Shown: piece after piece, positions 4,056 to 57,287 of the stretch
Numbering within the stretch: position 1 is the stretch's first letter
Layout of the letters: every line of letters starts with the position of its first letter
The notes under the pieces: model-generated
The model's database searches: none
Seen by the model: only the letters and a program-made list of their open reading frames with translations
What the model was told of the DNA's origin: nothing
Assembly (NCBI GenBank): GCA_964627095.1
Contig: CAZVKH010000001.1
Location: forward strand, 8,451-72,450
Origin: an uncultured Candidatus Saccharibacteria bacterium
Lineage (GTDB): Bacteria > Patescibacteriota > Saccharimonadia > Saccharimonadales > JAUPVS01
Length of the DNA: 64,000 nucleotides
Reading direction: 5' to 3'
Translations under genes and position numbers: made by a program

Positions 4056-5894
4056 ATGAAAAAACTTATCCACTATTTCAAGACTTACAAACACTTGGGC
4101 ATCGTCATCCTAGCCATAATTATGGCCGGAGCACTCGACCTAGGTGGCTACGAACGCTATGCCAACATTGTTTTAGGCGTAACCGCTTCGTTATCGGTTA
4201 TTCCATTACTCCTAGGCATGGTTCAAGACTTACGGGACGGCCAGTACGGTGTTGATATCCTTGCCGCCACCGCCATCATTTCTTCGGTGGCTCTGGGTGA
4301 ATACTGGGCCGGTATTGTTGTCGTATTAATGTTAACTGGTGGTGAATCGCTCGAAGATTACGCCGAACACCGGGCTAAGACCGAACTCGATGCCTTGCTC
4401 AGCCGAGCACCAAAGAAAGCTCACATTCTAAAAGGCAATAAGGTTACTGATGTGCTGGCCAGCAAGGTTCAGACCAACGACAAGCTTATTATTAAGCCCG
4501 GTGAGTTGGTGCCAGTCGATGCCGTTGTCATCGAAGGTCATGCCAGTCTTGACGAATCTAGCCTAACCGGTGAAAGCTTGCCGGTCGAAAAACACGCTGG
4601 CGATGAGCTACTCAGTGGTTCGGTTAACCTGGATGGCGTTCTGACCGTTAAAGCACTGCGACCGGCCGCCGACAGTCAGTACGAACAAATCATTAAGCTG
4701 GTGCGCGGTGCAGCCAGTAACCAATCACCATTTGTACGCCTGGCCGATAAATATAGTATTCCCTTCACGATTGTTGCCTACACCATCGCTATTAGCGTCT
4801 GGGTGGCTTCAGGTGACCCAATTAGATTTTTGCAAGTAATTATTGTCGCCACCCCTTGCCCACTATTACTAGCGGCGCCAATCGCATTAATATCCGGAAT
4901 GAGCCGAGCAGCGCGTCACGGTATTATAATTAAAACTGGCTCGGCCTTAGAAAAACTGGCTCAAGTAAAAACTATTGCCCTCGACAAAACCGGTACGTTA
5001 ACGGTAGGTAAGCCAGTTGTTGGTTCGATCAAGACTTTCAATAAACATAGTCAAAATAGTGTCCTGTCAGCAGCGGCCAGCCTTGAACAGGATTCAAACC
5101 ACATTTTAGCCAAGGCCGTTGTTGCCAAAGCCAACCAGGCAAACATTAAGACCTCTAAGGTAAAGAGCCTGCGTGAAGAAGCTGGTTACGGGTTAAGCGG
5201 CCTGGTTAACCGACAGCCTGTTTTAGTTGGCAATGCCTCACTCTTGCTTAAGCACGACGTTGACCTACCCAAGAAACTCCAAGACATGGCGGCCACAACC
5301 GCCTTTGTCGCCATAGACGGCGTCCTGGCTGGTACAATTGAATTTACCGATGAAGTCCGCCCGGAGTCTAAGTCAACGCTTCAGAGGCTCCGTGATGCCG
5401 GTGTACAGCACATTCTTATGATCACCGGCGATAACGTTGCAAGCGCCAAAGCAATTGCCAAAAAAGTTGGCATAAAAGATGTTCGAGCCAACTGCTTACC
5501 AGCCGACAAATTAACTGCTGTCGAAAATATTACCAACCGACCAGTTGCTTTTGTGGGTGATGGCGTTAACGACGCACCAGTTCTGACAGCCTCGGATGTT
5601 GGCATTGCTCTGGGTGCACGTGGCTCAGCGGCGGCCAGTGAATCAGCTGATGTAGTAATTATGCTCGACGACTTTGGTCGAGTCGCCACATCTGTAGAAA
5701 TCGCCAAGCGCACCTTCTTTATTGCTAAGCAAAGTATCCTGATTGGCATTTTTATTAGCGTCGGCTTAATGTTAATTTTTGCCACCGGTAAATTTAAGCC
5801 TATTTATGGTGCTGCTCTGCAAGAAGTCGTTGACGTGGCGGTTATCTTTAATGCCTTACGTGCCCACGGTTCTTGGCGCAAAAAAACTAGCTAG
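4056..5894 (+). CDS. P1B-type heavy-metal-translocating P-type ATPase lacking an N-terminal metal-binding domain
   Basis: Motifs TGES (actuator), TPCPLL (TM6 PCP/CPx-like), DKTGTLT (phosphorylation site), GDGVNDAP (hinge), SNHILA (HP-like). The ORF-track start at 4038 is TTG. ATG at 4056 is preceded by TAGGAA. Confidence 0.8.
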   Translation: MKKLIHYFKTYKHLGIVILAIIMAGALDLGGYERYANIVLGVTASLSVIPLLLGMVQDLRDGQYGVDILAATAIISSVALGEYWAGIVVVLMLTGGESLEDYAEHRAKTELDALLSRAPKKAHILKGNKVTDVLASKVQTNDKLIIKPGELVPVDAVVIEGHASLDESSLTGESLPVEKHAGDELLSGSVNLDGVLTVKALRPAADSQYEQIIKLVRGAASNQSPFVRLADKYSIPFTIVAYTIAISVWVASGDPIRFLQVIIVATPCPLLLAAPIALISGMSRAARHGIIIKTGSALEKLAQVKTIALDKTGTLTVGKPVVGSIKTFNKHSQNSVLSAAASLEQDSNHILAKAVVAKANQANIKTSKVKSLREEAGYGLSGLVNRQPVLVGNASLLLKHDVDLPKKLQDMAATTAFVAIDGVLAGTIEFTDEVRPESKSTLQRLRDAGVQHILMITGDNVASAKAIAKKVGIKDVRANCLPADKLTAVENITNRPVAFVGDGVNDAPVLTASDVGIALGARGSAAASESADVVIMLDDFGRVATSVEIAKRTFFIAKQSILIGIFISVGLMLIFATGKFKPIYGAALQEVVDVAVIFNALRAHGSWRKKTS

Positions 5895-6541: not shown

Positions 6542-7516
6542 CTACTTATTGGGCCTAAGATCTAGGAAGTTAGCGCTTTGTAAGTTCTGTAACTGGCGTG
6601 GTGCAATGTCGAAGGTTGGTCGCTTAACATGAGTTGCAACCGAACGTCTCTGCAAGACTGGCTCAATAAAGGCCGGGCGGGGTGCTGGCTGCGGTGACAC
6701 CTTGGGGGCCGGTGGCAACTGTGATGGGTGTTTTCGGCGCTGTTCTTTGGCAGCAGCCTGTGCAGCGGCATACTTTTTGGCCGCCTTGGCCCGGCGATTT
6801 GCTTTTCGGTTAGCTAGATACACAAAGAATACCGACAAGTTATACAGCAGTATTATCGGTAGAGCGATTAGGAATTGCGTTAGTGGGTCGTAGGTAAATG
6901 GCAAAACCAGGGCCAGGGCCAAACTGCCGACAATAACGTGGCGCTCGTACTTAAGCAGCTTGCGCGGTGACATCGGCTTGATGTGGTTGATGAACAAAAT
7001 AAGCAAAGGCAACTGGAACAGTAATATAAACGTCAGTATGCAAGCCAGTGCGAAGTTAAGGTAGTCGTCGGCTGATATAAGCGGATTAACACCTGTGATT
7101 TCGACACCCTGAAAGAAATGCAAGGACATTGGTAAGGCGCCAAAATATGCAAAGGCGGCGCCGGCTACTCCTAGGGTCAAGGAAAGAAGCGTCACCATGG
7201 TAATAAGGCGGCGGGTGATTTTTTTACCAACAGCTGGTTCAATAAACGATATTATATTGTAGATTAGAGCCGGTATAGCCAGGGTTATGCCCAGGATAAA
7301 GCAGATCTTCATAATAAAGTTGAACCCACCAGCCGGCGTGGTGTAGTAAAGCTGCTGGTTGAGCGGGGCCGTCATAAAGACGATTAGCTGATCATGAAAC
7401 ATATAGGCCACACCGGCACCCACTAGCAATAGCAATGCTGGCCAGGTCAGCCGGCGACGCAGTTCCTGGACATGTCCAGAAAAAGTTAGCTTTGGTTCCA
7501 TGATCTGCCCATCCAT
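6542..7516 (-). CDS. tatC: Sec-independent protein translocase TatC (with basic/Pro-rich C-terminal tail)
   Basis: N-terminal LTFSGHVQELRRRL motif, six predicted TM helices, TatC-like topology. Confidence 0.85.
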   Translation of the reverse strand: MDGQIMEPKLTFSGHVQELRRRLTWPALLLLVGAGVAYMFHDQLIVFMTAPLNQQLYYTTPAGGFNFIMKICFILGITLAIPALIYNIISFIEPAVGKKITRRLITMVTLLSLTLGVAGAAFAYFGALPMSLHFFQGVEITGVNPLISADDYLNFALACILTFILLFQLPLLILFINHIKPMSPRKLLKYERHVIVGSLALALVLPFTYDPLTQFLIALPIILLYNLSVFFVYLANRKANRRAKAAKKYAAAQAAAKEQRRKHPSQLPPAPKVSPQPAPRPAFIEPVLQRRSVATHVKRPTFDIAPRQLQNLQSANFLDLRPNK

Positions 7517-7543
7517 CTCGAAGACCTCTCGTTTAGTTATGGA

Positions 7544-8234: not shown

Positions 8235-8723
8235 ATGATTTATATACAACACACATTCAAGATGTTTATGGGCAAAGTTTCGGCCTCTATTGTGGTGTTT
8301 TTGTTTGTTGCTGGGATGGTTCTTACGCCGGCTTCTGCTTTGGCAGCCACTCCCGACTATAGTTGCGGGGCTTACGGTGGCAACGACTATAACAGTAACT
8401 GTCCAACCGACCCTAGTACCCCTAGCTCAAGTAGCAGTTCCTCTAGCAGCTCGACTGGCAGTAGTTCTAGCGACGGAGCGGCGGCCGACACGCCGACAAC
8501 TTCGGATACTACAACTACAACCGACGACAGCACCGCTATCGATACAAACGACAAAAGTTCTTCTACCACCAAGACAGCTGCCGAAGAAGAAGCTGGTACG
8601 TCTAATAGCAGCCGCTGGCTTTTGTTCGGCTTCTCGCTCTTTCTGCTCCTGCTAGCTCTATGGCTGATCTTCTTCTTGCTCAAGCGCCGCAAGCGCCAGC
8701 AAGAAGACAAACCAATGTTCTAG
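8235..8723 (+). CDS. Secreted Ser/Thr-rich low-complexity surface protein with C-terminal TM anchor and basic tail
   Basis: Signal peptide (…VVFLFVAGMVLTPASALA), poly-Ser/Thr linker, C-terminal hydrophobic segment plus KRRKRQQ (cell-surface anchoring architecture without LPXTG). Confidence 0.5.
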   Translation: MIYIQHTFKMFMGKVSASIVVFLFVAGMVLTPASALAATPDYSCGAYGGNDYNSNCPTDPSTPSSSSSSSSSSTGSSSSDGAAADTPTTSDTTTTTDDSTAIDTNDKSSSTTKTAAEEEAGTSNSSRWLLFGFSLFLLLLALWLIFFLLKRRKRQQEDKPMF

Positions 8724-9552: not shown

Positions 9553-9572
9553 AGAATTGGAAGCGACTGCCT

Positions 9573-9690
9573 GGCGGCACATTTCGTCGCGGGCTCGGTG
9601 CCAGCACCTGCGCGCGCTCCTCATGAGCGCACCTTCGACTACTGTCTGCTGCGCAGCCAAGTCGAAGAACCGGCGTCTTGCTCACTGGCA
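9573..9690. other. tRNA-adjacent conserved structured element, copy C (divergent; candidate ncRNA/cis element)
   Basis: Shares GGC-GCACAT…GCTCGG-[hairpin]-CCTGCGC…TTCGA with copies A and B. The hairpin arms GGTGC/GCACC covary with GGAAT/ATTCC. It lies between the terminator of tRNA-Pro and the promoter of the YkgJ-like gene. Confidence 0.4.
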
Positions 9691-9692
9691 AA

Positions 9693-9728
9693 GAAAAAGA
9701 GCCATCCTTATGGATGACTCATTTTCTT
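9693..9728. terminator. Bidirectional rho-independent terminator (A-run, GAGCCATCC-TTAT-GGATGACTC, T-run) 3' of tRNA-Pro
   Basis: 9-bp stem with one mismatch, flanked by AAAGAAAAA and ATTTTCTTT. Confidence 0.6.
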
Positions 9729-9805
9729 TGGTCGGGGTGAAAGGACTCGAACCTTCGACCTCACGGTCCCAAACCGCGCGCGCTAGCCAACTGCGCCACA
9801 CCCCG
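9729..9805 (-). tRNA. tRNA-Pro (anticodon TGG)
   Basis: Acceptor CGGGGTG/CACCCCG, D arm GCGC-AGTTGGCTA-GCGC, anticodon stem CGCGG/CCGTG with loop TTTGGGA, T arm GAAGG-TTCGAGT-CCTTT, CCA encoded. Confidence 0.85.
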
Positions 9806-25241: not shown

Positions 25242-26750
25242 TTAACTTTCGCTGAAGACTTTTTGGACTAATTCAAGTTGCCTTTGGTTAGTCGGATCAA
25301 ACTTAGCCTTAAATACTAGGTCAAGCATCGCCGGGTCGTTTTTATACTTTTCCCAAAATGTGACAACTCGCTGCTTACCCTCTAAGTATGCCAAGTCTTT
25401 GTTAAATGTAAGTAGGTGATGCTCCCCGTCAGAAAGTCTATCATCAACGCTGGTTGGCGTGCCTCTAAATATTCGAACGCAGCCCGCGTAAGTGTTGTTT
25501 TGAGCGGTAGAAATTTGTTTTTCAGTTGGCTCTTCGCCGCTTTGAGCTTTTATCAACACTCGTGCCCGCCAAAGTGTTTCGAATACCTTGCGAAAGTCAT
25601 TTCCTTCGTAAGCTAAACCGTAGGCTGCATATCGCTCCAGATTCGGTGCATCCCAACTCGTATCCTCACCTGTTGTTGCTTTCTCGCAAGTCGAAGCAAA
25701 ACCTTCTTCGAAAGTCAGGTAGTCACTTACTTCGCCAGGTTCGGCAGCCGTGTATAGCCCCGTCCCAACCACCGGAATATCTGTCTCGATGCCACTCATG
25801 GCCCGGCCAGCATGAACTATGTATTCGTGCACTACTTTACTTAACATCTCTTTTGCAGAAGAAATAGGACCACGCTTGCCACCAATTACTACAGCCATCT
25901 GTTCTGTTTCCCAAGAAAGTGCAGTCGCCGATGGGTCGATAAGCACTTGGATTCCAGAACTATTATCAGGGTCACGCTGTTGATGAATAAGACTAAAGAT
26001 AGCGTACATATCATCGACGGTAAAATGCTGTTCTTCCGTCGGTCTTGGCTTAACATTTTCGTCCCAATACCGTAATATAGTCGGCTCAAGATCTGGGTTA
26101 TCGCTCAAGACTTTCTCATCCAGATAATCGAGTAGTTCTTGAGGTAGTGGCTTAAGTGGCTCGGCATCATTACGCTTAAGTGGAGATACGACGATAGATT
26201 TGCCTGCAACTTCTACCACAAAGCCATGTTCTAGCTCTTGCTTGAGTTGTTGCCCAACTCCAACCAACTCCTTGCCATCAATCTGACGCCAAATTTCACT
26301 TACTACGCCAGCGTACAAGTCTTGATCGGGTTTGCCGTACAGCTGTTCGTTCAGGTTTTGAACATAGCTAGCCCGGCGATCAAGTTCGTCTTCTGACATC
26401 GTAAAGTGGCCATCAATAAGTTCTTTGGCGCTTAGCAACCAATACATCTCGGCCATTCGATAAGCTGCGCTGTCCCAAATTGCCTCTTTGGCAGTCTGGT
26501 CGGGCTGCGCCTCGGCTAGTTTTAGAACCTCACCCAGAACAGATATGCCATTTCTTAGTTCGTTTTCATCTAAAACTGGGTAATCAAGGGTGGGGTTAAC
26601 AACATCGCCTGCGAGAAAATCATCTCTTTGTTGAGCCCGCTCATCTTTGTCGCCCGCCAAACGTTTATACGACTGAAATGCGATTTCAGGAGTATTGAGA
26701 GGATGGAGTTGTTCGCGTAGCGAGACTCCTTCAAGAAGTATCTCTGACAT
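25242..26750 (-). CDS. Hypothetical protein (503 aa; possible DUF1704-like), leaderless
   Basis: ATG at 26750 (MSEILLEG…) directly follows TTATAAT. The longer ORF-track N-terminus would run through the conserved element and the tRNA-Lys terminator. Confidence 0.5.
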   Translation of the reverse strand: MSEILLEGVSLREQLHPLNTPEIAFQSYKRLAGDKDERAQQRDDFLAGDVVNPTLDYPVLDENELRNGISVLGEVLKLAEAQPDQTAKEAIWDSAAYRMAEMYWLLSAKELIDGHFTMSEDELDRRASYVQNLNEQLYGKPDQDLYAGVVSEIWRQIDGKELVGVGQQLKQELEHGFVVEVAGKSIVVSPLKRNDAEPLKPLPQELLDYLDEKVLSDNPDLEPTILRYWDENVKPRPTEEQHFTVDDMYAIFSLIHQQRDPDNSSGIQVLIDPSATALSWETEQMAVVIGGKRGPISSAKEMLSKVVHEYIVHAGRAMSGIETDIPVVGTGLYTAAEPGEVSDYLTFEEGFASTCEKATTGEDTSWDAPNLERYAAYGLAYEGNDFRKVFETLWRARVLIKAQSGEEPTEKQISTAQNNTYAGCVRIFRGTPTSVDDRLSDGEHHLLTFNKDLAYLEGKQRVVTFWEKYKNDPAMLDLVFKAKFDPTNQRQLELVQKVFSES

Positions 26751-26792
26751 ATACATATTATAACATAATAGAATGAGTTTTACGATGCCACT

Positions 26793-26890
26793 GGGGCAAC
26801 GCACATCTACGGCCTTGCTCGGAATGCATTCCTGCGCATGGCCTTGATGACCGAACCCCGGCTGCGCCGTTTGGGTTCTCGGCGCGTGCT
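26793..26890. other. tRNA-adjacent conserved structured element, copy A (candidate ncRNA/cis element)
   Basis: About 75 nt nearly identical to 53732..53806. Nested helices CATC/GATG, GGCC/GGCC, GGAAT-GC-ATTCC. Lies between the tRNA-Lys terminator and the leaderless 25242..26750 gene. Confidence 0.5.
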
Positions 26891-26891
26891 C

Positions 26892-26928
26892 CATGAAAAA
26901 AGCCGAACACAAGGTTCGACTGTTTTCA
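26892..26928. terminator. Bidirectional terminator hairpin (CATGAAAAAAGCCGAAC-ACAAG-GTTCGACTGTTTTCATG) 3' of tRNA-Lys
   Basis: About 17-bp imperfect stem containing A/T tracts. Confidence 0.55.
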
Positions 26929-27005
26929 TGGAGGGCCCACTGGGACTCGAACCCAGGACACCCTGCTTAAAAGGCAGGTGCTCTAACCGGCTGAGCTATG
27001 GGCCC
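26929..27005 (-). tRNA. tRNA-Lys (anticodon TTT)
   Basis: Acceptor GGGCCCA/TGGGCCC, D arm GCTC-AGCCGGTTA-GAGC, anticodon stem CCTGC/GCAGG with loop CTTTTAA, T arm CTGGG-TTCGAGT-CCCAG, CCA encoded. Promoter TTGACT-17-TAATGT lies upstream. Confidence 0.9.
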
Positions 27006-53715: not shown

Positions 53716-53731
53716 GGCTTTTGGCGGGGCA

Positions 53732-53830
53732 GGGCAACGCACATCTGCAGCCATGCTCGGAATATATTCCTGCGCGTGGCTTTGATGACCGAACCTGGGC
53801 TACGCCCGACGGTTCAAGTCTTCTCTGTGA
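53732..53830. other. tRNA-adjacent conserved structured element, copy B (candidate ncRNA/cis element)
   Basis: About 75 nt nearly identical to copy A. Helix 2 covaries (AGCCA/TGGCT versus GGCC/GGCC). Palindrome GGAATATATTCC. Confidence 0.5.
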
Positions 53831-53833
53831 CCA

Positions 53834-53868
53834 AGAAAAAAGACCCTTCTTGTGAAGAGTCTCTTTTC
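53834..53868. terminator. Bidirectional rho-independent terminator (A-run, GACCCTTC-TTGT-GAAGAGTC, T-run) 3' of tRNA-fMet
   Basis: 8-bp stem, AAGAAAAAA upstream, TCTTTTCTT downstream. Confidence 0.6.
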
Positions 53869-53943
53869 TTGGTAGCGGGGGCAGGACTCGAACCTGCGAC
53901 CTCGTGGTTATGAGCCACGCGAGCTGCCACTGCTCCACCCCGC
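53869..53943 (-). tRNA. Initiator tRNA-fMet (anticodon CAT)
   Basis: 5' CGCGGGGTGGAGCAG identical to E. coli tRNA-fMet. C1 is unpaired with T72. Anticodon loop CTCATAA. CCA encoded. Confidence 0.85.
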
Positions 53944-54024
53944 GTCGAGTTGAGCAAGCTATAGCATACCAGATGAAAGCTACTTATACAACATCGGTGG
54001 GAAATGTGGTAGAGTATCTTCACT

Positions 54025-55034: not shown

Positions 55035-55111
55035 GGCGGCGTAGCTCAGTTGGTTAGAGCACAGGACTCATAAGCCTGGGGTCACAAGTTCAAATCTTGT
55101 CGCCGCTACCA
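55035..55111 (+). tRNA. Elongator tRNA-Met (anticodon CAT)
   Basis: Closely resembles E. coli elongator tRNA-Met (…GTTGGTTAGAGCAC…CTCATAA…GGGGTCACAAGTTCAAATC…). CCA encoded. One A:G mismatch at 31:39. Confidence 0.75.
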
Positions 55112-57211: not shown

Positions 57212-57287
57212 GGGGGTGTAGCTCATCGGTCAGAGCAGGCGGCTCATAACCGCTTGGTAGATGGTTCAACTCCATCCACCCCCACCA
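57212..57287 (+). tRNA. tRNA-Ile2 (anticodon CAT, lysidine-modified type)
   Basis: Anticodon arm GGCGG-CTCATAA-CCGCT-TGGTA closely matches E. coli tRNA-Ile2 (GGCGA-CTCATAA-TCGCT-TGGTC). tilS is present in the window. Confidence 0.7.

Follow-up and report, generated by a model that had tools for sequence, protein, structure and literature searches.

Candidate insertion modules with a covarying hairpin core at the 3' ends of Saccharibacteria tRNA genes

The stretch of DNA analyzed here (the window, 64 kb in length) contains three copies of a conserved intergenic element, each located beyond the 3' end of a tRNA gene. All three, copy A (26793-26890), copy B (53732-53830) and copy C (9573-9690), are read on the plus strand and are convergent with a minus-strand tRNA gene, for tRNA-Lys, tRNA-Met and tRNA-Pro, respectively. 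Copies A and C lie upstream of the starts of minus-strand genes, and copy B lies 17 nt past a stop codon. The original prediction, made from the sequence of the window, had placed three copies at these positions, had noted a terminator between each copy and its tRNA, and had excluded conservation at the protein level. All of this is borne out, the placement of the copies both by direct comparison of the sequences and by a covariance model. The window represents core chromosome, with genes for RecA, RuvB, DnaJ, TatC, a PP-loop ATPase (Pfam ATP_bind_3), Dus and a sigma factor. The features of the three copies are given below, where K is the conserved core hairpin, P1 to P4 are helices or hairpins, c' is a direct repeat of the tRNA 3' end and T is the terminator module.

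26781..26796, minus strand: copy A, remnant of c' (direct repeat of the tRNA-Lys 3' end), of which only CCCAGTGG, equal to tRNA nt 61-68, is intact
26795..26857, unstranded: copy A, core K, 63 nt, identified by the covariance model (73.2 bits), the fold and covariation; helices P1 (26804-26807/26846-26849), P2 (26811-26818/26836-26843) and P3 (26820-26824/26829-26834); invariant segments GCTCGG, CCTGCGC and GACCGAACC
26851..26893, unstranded: copy A, P4 (26851-26882) and the decayed inverted tRNA-Lys 3' end (...TGCTCCA), the latter paired with 26792-26802 so that a three-way junction is closed
26891..26931, unstranded: copy A, bidirectional terminator T (CCATGAAAAAAGCC...GTTTTCATGG), abutting the CCA end of the tRNA
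26929..27005, minus strand: intact tRNA-Lys(TTT), host of copy A, with a promoter-like site at 27067-27040
53721..53734, minus strand: copy B, remnant of c' of the tRNA-Met 3' end (TTGGCGGGGCAGG versus TGGTAGCGGGGGCAGG)
53733..53795, unstranded: copy B, core K (P1-P3), covariance model 81.1 bits
53790..53833, unstranded: copy B, P4 (CGAACC...GGTTC) and the decayed inverted 3' third of tRNA-Met (GGTTCAAGTCTTCTCTGTGACCA)
53831..53872, unstranded: copy B, terminator module T; the close relative L044 has a different module in its place
53870..53944, minus strand: tRNA-Met(CAT), initiator-like, host of copy B
9571..9633, unstranded: copy C, core K, belonging to the divergent 'CCATTTCG' subfamily (members L070, L081 and L088), covariance model 59.0 bits, with several mismatches in P1 and P2
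9625..9690, unstranded: copy C, P4, of which the arm ACCTTCGAC is the reverse complement of tRNA-Pro nt ~45-53
9688..9731, unstranded: copy C, terminator module T
9729..9805, minus strand: tRNA-Pro(TGG), host of copy C

The motif GCTCGG-N8-CCTGCGC, whose two segments had been described as invariant, occurs exactly three times in the 64-kb window with no mismatches allowed. A covariance model built from 45 distinct homologous cores detects exactly these three copies in the window, with E values from 5e-20 (copy B) to 5e-14 (copy C). The fourth-best match in 64 kb scores 13 bits (E 0.15).

When 185,579 species genomes were scanned for the pattern, 50 stretches matched. Nine of these are true homologues, all from Saccharibacteria/Patescibacteria assemblies, and the remainder are chance matches in high-GC DNA. 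(One of the nine homologous contigs carries the label Limnocylindria.) A metagenome scan combined with nhmmer enlarged the set to ~65 copies, and the covariance model gave 74 matches from 59 sources. Altogether it finds ~56 distinct homologues, located exclusively in Saccharibacteria/Patescibacteria DNA. The sample consists mainly of short metagenome contigs with few copies per single genome, and hence intragenomic dynamics are thinly sampled.

The conserved core, K, is a 63-nt imperfect hairpin (P1-P3) with a fixed bulge and fixed mismatches. Across the 45 distinct cores, 90.8% of the cells in P1-P3 are paired, compared to 76.3% in shuffled alignments, and 120 cells are changed on both sides, compared to 44 in the shuffles. 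Neither observed value was reached in any of 500 shuffles. In slid-register controls, only 25–49% of cells are paired. Individual pairs show the same trend: 11:57 is AU in 29 cores and GC in 12, 22:46 is AU in 22 and GC in 18, 30:37 is AU in 30 and UA in 13, and 31:36 is GC in 26 and AU in 19. The three helices drawn in the original prediction are therefore correct, and these data support its claim of a conserved nucleic-acid fold with compensatory changes and invariant loop sequence. Beyond the element as first described, we find the additional hairpin P4 and a closing helix. Folded as a single strand, a well-preserved unit forms a three-way junction with the closing helix, K and P4 as its arms, and so does copy A. 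These Y-shaped folds have z-scores of -2.6 to -4.1.

Proximity to a tRNA gene is a general property of the family. In the ~40 copies with enough flanking contig, the core is followed after 64-106 nt by a convergent tRNA gene, whose orientation is the same throughout. The host genes represent 13 isoacceptors: Met, Lys(TTT, CTT), Arg(TCG, CCT, TCT, GCG), Asn, Ser(CGA, GGA, GCT), Gln and Pro. Similarity among the cores does not track the identity of the tRNA. One cluster of related cores spans Met, Lys(TTT), Lys(CTT) and Arg(TCG), other clusters combine Arg with Asn, Met with Pro, and Gln with Ser, and tRNA-Met is host to cores of five clusters.

We aligned each tRNA with the DNA downstream of it to derive the layout of the full unit, which occupies ~130-170 bp at the 3' end of the tRNA gene and contains no ORF. 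Read in the sense of the tRNA, the intact tRNA is followed by a new bidirectional terminator, the stem of which reaches the CCA, and by a decayed inverted copy of nt ~76-44. Next come an inner hairpin and a direct copy that covers nt 44-57 (the variable loop, 5' T-stem and TTCG), which together make up P4. The 63-nt hairpin K follows, then a direct repeat of nt ~59-76 that extends to the CCA and, often, a second terminator that resembles the original one of the tRNA, seen directly past the repeat in L049, L029, L140, L098 and L122.

Each of the tRNA-derived pieces resembles its own tRNA more than others. In local alignments (match +1, mismatch –1), the outer repeat reaches 11.8 with its own tRNA but 5.4 with non-cognate tRNAs, and the own tRNA is higher in 31 of 32 loci. 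The corresponding values are 9.6 versus 7.4 for the copy of nt 44-57 (own tRNA higher in 27 of 32 loci) and 8.7 versus 6.1 for the inverted copy (25 of 32), the boundaries of which were set as crude windows. In 27 of 33 loci, the start of the outer repeat is 15-19 nt away from the tRNA 3' end, with a mode of 18. In 17 of the 33, the repeat is unbroken to the CCA and ends there, and 14 of these 17 are clean duplicates of 15-18 nt. The length of the duplication is 16-18 nt. The repeats in the window are degraded, with 8 nt retained in copy A, internal deletions in copy B and no clear repeat in copy C. Unlike in copy B, the tRNA-Met repeat (c') is intact in the related locus L120.

Since K lies between a copy of nt 44-57 and a repeat of nt ~59-76, its place within this partial copy of the tRNA is T-loop position 58. 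The tRNA-end repeat on the far side, together with the internal tRNA-derived pieces, shows that the whole unit is an insertion into the 3' end of the tRNA gene, accompanied by duplication of the tRNA end. This layout is the expected product of a circle [3' end-terminator-P4-K] integrating via the last 16-18 nt of the tRNA, and equally of a staggered cut that runs from the T-loop to the CCA. Either route leaves the tRNA intact and provides it with a new terminator. One caveat here is that sequence which looks derived from the target might also result from gene conversion with the neighboring tRNA, and the tRNA-specific internal pieces could have been kept similar by such conversion instead of being made at insertion. 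Integrative elements of tRNA genes are typified by a direct 3' repeat with an intact tRNA, as seen here with the best match to the own tRNA, and by an integrase inside the element, which this ORF-free unit lacks.

The explanation that we favor, at about even odds (roughly 50%), is that each copy is the core of a small, non-autonomous module for site-specific insertion or integration at tRNA 3' ends, that such modules form a family specific to Saccharibacteria, and that the hairpin acts in cis as a single-strand structure. An enzyme supplied in trans would copy such a unit, now or recently, from one tRNA gene to another, and K and P4 would be conserved because the single-stranded form (DNA or RNA) must fold. 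The stacked arms of the three-way junction may imitate segment 44-76 of the target tRNA gene, with K protruding at T-loop position 58. Given a requirement for folding of the single strand, K would be a cis-acting recognition structure rather than the product of an independent sRNA gene. Several lines of evidence point in this direction, namely the association with tRNA genes, the repeat of the own tRNA, the clusters of related cores at different tRNAs, the former terminators past the repeat, the covariation in K, the three-way junction, the arrays of copies, the symmetry of the fold between strands, the lack of a promoter-like site, the terminator module and left flank that differ in the close relative L044, and the lack of an Rfam match (the last five are detailed below).

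A number of observations argue against the insertion modules. No linked recombinase, transposase or reverse transcriptase was found: Pfam searches revealed no recurrent integrase, recombinase, transposase, Cas1 or reverse transcriptase among 122 neighboring ORFs, and no integrase, transposase, reverse transcriptase or Cas1 among 20 ORFs of the window. Among the homologues, mostly short contigs, no pair of empty and filled alleles and no excised form was observed. Near-identical copies at different tRNAs of one genome were not seen, and the unit ends lack terminal inverted repeats. Copies A and B are ~86% identical and copy C is far more divergent, from which it follows that any mobility is not very recent.

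Alternatively, K and P4, perhaps with the closing helix, may be transcribed and function as a structured RNA, in which case the insertion context would explain only how the element arrived. The transcript could be a plus-strand RNA that ends at the shared terminator or a product of read-through in the tRNA sense, and it could serve as a 3'-end stabilizer or insulator, as a protein-binding sRNA or as an RNA that pairs with the 3' part of the cognate tRNA. We view this as unlikely, though a serious contender. Strong covariation and invariant internal-loop nucleotides are expected of such an RNA, as are the Y-shaped folds. Copies A and B, which share one genome, differ in a compensatory way, and this might equally reflect selection on a transcribed RNA. 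Moreover, cores score equally high in loci with degraded repeats and in well-preserved loci, and the A-run/hairpin/T-run terminator that separates each copy from its tRNA carries a T-run for either direction (as examined in copy A). On the plus strand, the sequences flanking K are antisense to tRNA nt 59-76 and 44-57 and nt 58 faces the base of K, an arrangement reminiscent of guide RNAs. However, about half of the loci, all three copies of the window among them, have these antisense segments in decayed or truncated form, and yet K persists.

Other data also argue against an RNA product. No promoter-like site was detected upstream of the element on either strand for copies A and B, while the tRNA-Lys promoter was detected in the same analysis. 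The upstream flanks are unrelated between loci, and the element in well-preserved loci is bounded on both sides by terminators (the new one and the tRNA's former one). Wobble pairs in K are rare and evenly divided between strands, with 20 G-U (plus strand) versus 26 A-C (minus strand) in ~850 cells; G-U thus accounts for only 2–3% of pairs on either strand, apart from one fixed U-G. Raw minimum free energies favor the tRNA-sense strand, but this bias disappears when composition is controlled (z-scores of -2.87 versus -2.80 for the two strands). A strand-symmetric fold dominated by Watson-Crick pairs is as expected of a hairpin that acts at the DNA level, and the symmetry leans toward DNA rather than RNA action. 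Of the two roles initially proposed, that of a plain sRNA gene sharing the tRNA terminator fits poorly with the missing promoter, the unrelated flanks, the paired terminators and the symmetry of the strands. The other, a 5'-leader element, fails for copy B, since there is no gene downstream of it on the minus strand.

Copies also occur in tandem (L081) and in arrays of the form element-cargo-element-tRNA (L098, L122, L112, L140, L137 and L083). In both L098 and L112, the two copies of the array are nearly identical. Partial tRNA 3' ends flank 2-6 kb of cargo next to the element at six loci (L098, L122, L112, L140, L137 and L105). Based on Pfam analysis of 10 island ORFs, this cargo is island-like in content. 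It includes a HigB-like toxin paired with an IrrE/HTH gene, along with a Schlafen/AlbA_2-domain protein, a lipase, an alginate lyase and a surface protein, and L105 has a truncated large serine recombinase. These loci raise the possibility, which we consider doubtful, that the unit is itself immobile and represents a scar, i.e. the tRNA-proximal arm (attP arm plus replacement terminator) of a larger, tycheposon-type island whose cargo and integrase have been deleted from these reduced genomes. Serial integration into tRNA genes, with older elements pushed outward, is known from the tycheposons of Prochlorococcus (bioRxiv 10.1101/2020.12.28.424599). Flanking sequence is also variable: comparison of the window with its close relative L044 shows nearly identical tRNA, K and P4, but a different terminator module and a different left flank at copy B. 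A broader comparison of close strains, based on exact protein matches of neighboring genes, yielded contigs of ~1.2 kb or nothing.

Several features of the family are hard to reconcile with deleted islands. The compact anatomy is constant over 13 isoacceptors and the repeat abuts K, which would be unexpected if the interior had been lost by random deletion. Protein-binding sites of the arm type conserve sequence and show no hairpin covariation. The larger islands at these loci use another breakpoint, with only the last 6-9 nt of the tRNA kept beside the terminator, and their junctions share a different pseudo-T-arm sequence. No integrase recurs among the 122 neighboring ORFs. Viral and plasmid collections are likewise silent: pattern scans of IMG/VR gave no match, or chance matches in high-GC coding DNA, and blastn against GenBank phages and PLSDB plasmids gave none.

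A more radical view, which we regard as quite improbable, is that the unit exemplifies a new class of mobile element, ~150 nt long and devoid of genes, that homes to tRNA genes and folds as a single strand into a three-way junction imitating nt 44-76 of the target, with the conserved hairpin projecting at T-loop position 58. In that event, the unit would be inserted by a host or unlinked enzyme, for which an Xer-like or Cas1-like integrase would be a candidate, as would a tRNA-primed reverse transcriptase that produces the 18-nt repeat of primer-binding-site length. Each insertion would duplicate the last 18 nt of the tRNA, give it a renewed terminator and offer cargo islands a second place to land.

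LTR retroelements are primed at a primer-binding site of 18 nt that corresponds to the tRNA from the CCA to nt 59, where the polymerase is stopped by m1A58. The outer repeat resembles such a site in its 18-nt match to the tRNA 3' end, and one can imagine that it was made by reverse transcription that began at, or was primed by, the 3' end of the mature tRNA and stopped at nt 58, after which the unit entered the cognate tRNA gene through homology. The best-preserved repeats indeed span exactly nt 59-76, with a precise CCA end and a start beside nt 58, and the succession of forward, inverted and forward tRNA segments resembles snap-back template switching. Even so, we consider a retroelement-like origin very unlikely, as no reverse transcriptase is encoded among the 122 neighboring or 20 window ORFs, nt 44, where the internal copy starts, is no known stop of reverse transcription, and selection to keep the tRNA intact would likewise place the boundary at the CCA or past it. 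All tRNA genes here encode CCA, and so an origin from DNA accounts for the identical boundary. The unit itself is not classed as an LTR-type or other retroelement: unlike these, it has no LTRs, reverse transcriptase or polypurine tract, and it always lies beside the cognate tRNA gene.

With respect to known systems, the insertion modules are most readily compared to the islands of tRNA genes, such as tycheposons and others formed by tyrosine-integrase crossover in the T-loop. Like them, the unit is integrated at the tRNA 3' end, leaves the tRNA intact and has a partial tRNA repeat on its far side; successive integrations push older ones outward, and cargo accumulates by the tRNA. Unlike them, it measures 130-170 bp, ~100 times less, encodes neither an integrase nor any other gene, and has one conserved core at at least 13 different tRNAs. 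Nor do islands as described have a covarying hairpin at T-loop position 58 and an inverted tRNA copy.

A second group for comparison comprises integron attC sites, CTX-phage attP(+) and REP/BIME sequences, in which structure is likewise preserved over sequence, the hairpin is imperfect, Watson-Crick paired and strand-symmetric, and copies stand at the ends of cargo in arrays with the newest member nearest the anchor. In contrast to attC, the core sites R''/R' (RYYYAAC/GTTRRRY) are absent, and we dismissed attC as an identification because inspection of the alignment revealed no GTTRRRY partner and no integron integrase is nearby. Instead of attI or dif, a tRNA gene serves as the anchor, and the unit includes a terminator and tRNA-derived arms; single-strand recombination is in our case only inferred.

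Casposons insert at the 3'-distal end of tRNA genes, with a 14-bp target-site duplication that preserves the gene in Methanosarcina, and also form tandem insertions (PMC4779613). The unit shares with these elements, and with the spacer integration of CRISPR systems (the Cas1 family), the 3'-distal position, the long, gene-preserving duplication and the tandem copies. It differs in the absence of terminal inverted repeats, Cas1 and PolB, in its ~100-fold smaller size and in its duplication, which is 16-18 nt and spans the T-loop to the CCA. Finally, MITEs and other small non-autonomous repeats are also short, non-coding, structured, intergenic and present in multiple copies. On inspection, the ends of the unit (GCAACGCACATC... 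and ...CTTTTCTT) are not inverted repeats, its position at tRNA genes is strict and its 16-18-nt duplication is far longer than typical, and a MITE or DNA transposon was rejected on these grounds.

Searches against RNA families were also negative. With Rfam 15, the whole window yielded only 8 tRNAs at the gathering threshold, copy A yielded only chance microRNA and terminator-type matches of 14-15 bits at E ≤ 10, and ten homologous loci yielded nothing over the element at E ≤ 1. The families covered include SRP RNA, tmRNA, 6S RNA, RNase P RNA, riboswitches, ribozymes, group I/II introns and sRNAs, and the result agrees with the original prediction, in which the element was not recognized as SRP RNA, tmRNA, 6S RNA, RNase P RNA or a common riboswitch. 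Resemblances noticed by eye to hammerhead ribozymes (UGAUGA...GAAA), box C/D RNAs and K-turns were discarded, since neither the spacing nor the partner boxes fit and Rfam gives no match. A tRNA or tRNA-like gene was also rejected: ARAGORN and RF00005 call only the genuine neighboring tRNAs, and all that the element holds of a tRNA is fragments (nt 44-57, nt 59-76 and an inverted copy), with no 5' half. A full-text search of the published literature retrieved no description of the element, and papers that deal with group I introns in tRNAs of Patescibacteria, or with TIGR-Tas, proved to be unrelated to it. Within the literature searched, the small tRNA-targeting insertion modules of Saccharibacteria are a previously undescribed family.

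Saccharibacteria and other CPR bacteria have tiny genomes, and gene exchange among them is poorly understood. The family described here marks the 3' ends of many tRNA genes of Saccharibacteria, at the border with variable regions of cargo. If mobile, it would be an unusually small and precise tRNA-targeting element, a handle on the seeding of islands and possibly a compact system for site-specific insertion; if it acts as RNA, it would represent a family of structured RNAs that is widespread in a major uncultivated lineage and yet unannotated. In either case, the covariance model can be used to annotate the element and to seek, across complete genomes, an enzyme that co-occurs with it. In the window itself, three of the eight tRNA genes are occupied, and at the unoccupied tRNA-His gene, the tRNA's own terminator follows directly.

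The tRNA repeat that flanks the element (the direct copy of tRNA nt ~59-76 on the far side of the conserved hairpin core, K) is reduced at roughly half of the loci to its core-proximal 8-11 nt, corresponding to tRNA nt 59/61-68/70. Reduced repeats were seen at the following positions.

Window 53721-53734, beside copy B
Window 26781-26796, beside copy A
Homologous loci L045, L044, L078, L074, L048, L086 and L019 on other contigs

Four homologous loci show an apparent second type of tRNA-3'-end junction.

L094 ~8330-8400, putative second-type junction
L140 ~545-620, putative second-type junction
L105 4940-5000, putative second-type junction
L098 ~7480-7530, minus strand, putative second-type junction

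In each of these, the tRNA remnant past the element's terminator consists only of TGG plus 6-9 nt. Next comes a cargo segment of 2-6 kb that opens with a shared pseudo-T-arm sequence, TACGTnCAnTCGAAnnGGAAC. The short remnant and the common start of the cargo suggest a separate island family, with recombination near tRNA nt 68-70. The 8-11 nt left in the reduced repeats are the counterpart of the piece retained at these island junctions, which suggests that the repeat was rearranged later and did not decay by point mutation.

Sequence around the element also differs between close relatives. The window and L044, the closest relative, are nearly identical in tRNA-Met, K and the neighboring hairpin P4, yet the terminator between copy B and tRNA-Met (window 53831-53872) is replaced in L044 by an unrelated one (~235-290), and the DNA to the left of copy B is different as well. 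A 3.5-kb stretch of the window holds three tRNA(CAT) genes, of which the initiator-like one alone has the element; L044 shows the same arrangement.

Window 53870-53944, minus strand, initiator-like tRNA(CAT) with the element
Window 55035-55111, plus strand, tRNA(CAT) without it
Window 57212-57287, plus strand, tRNA(CAT) without it

At L105 4811-4844, a second, partial copy of the module comprising the top of helix P2 and P3 (GTGCTCGG-loop-CCTGCGCGC) is nested in the P4 region of an element, suggesting that this module is the key conserved unit. Members of the 'CCATTTCG' subfamily, including copy C, have an additional hairpin, small and covarying, that separates K from the tRNA repeat, with stem arms GCTGC/GCAGC, GTTCGC/GCGAAC and GCTGCC/GGCAGC.

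Window 9560-9576, additional hairpin
L081 5565-5590, minus strand, additional hairpin
L088, additional hairpin
L105 4712-4735, additional hairpin

A mechanically called ORF of 556 aa with a TTG start (window 25242-26912, minus strand) extends through copy A and its terminator. The true start of this gene is most likely the ATG at 26750, giving a 502-aa protein whose sole Pfam match is weak and MATCAP-like.

Contig DATHJH010000025.1 (L037/L045), labelled 'Candidatus Limnocylindria', is probably mis-binned; it contains two Saccharibacteria-type elements, and its tRNA-Met genes are Saccharibacteria-like. Near the contig end at L120 (~4120-4160), tRNA-Met departs from the sequence of its relatives past ...GGTTATGAGGCA; an intron, a chimeric end of the contig or a rearrangement could explain this. 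At the start of the L112 contig (1-41), a tRNA 3' end in forward orientation and its reverse complement stand 10 nt apart, with the element next in line; the pair is either arranged head to head or an artefact of assembly at the end of the contig.
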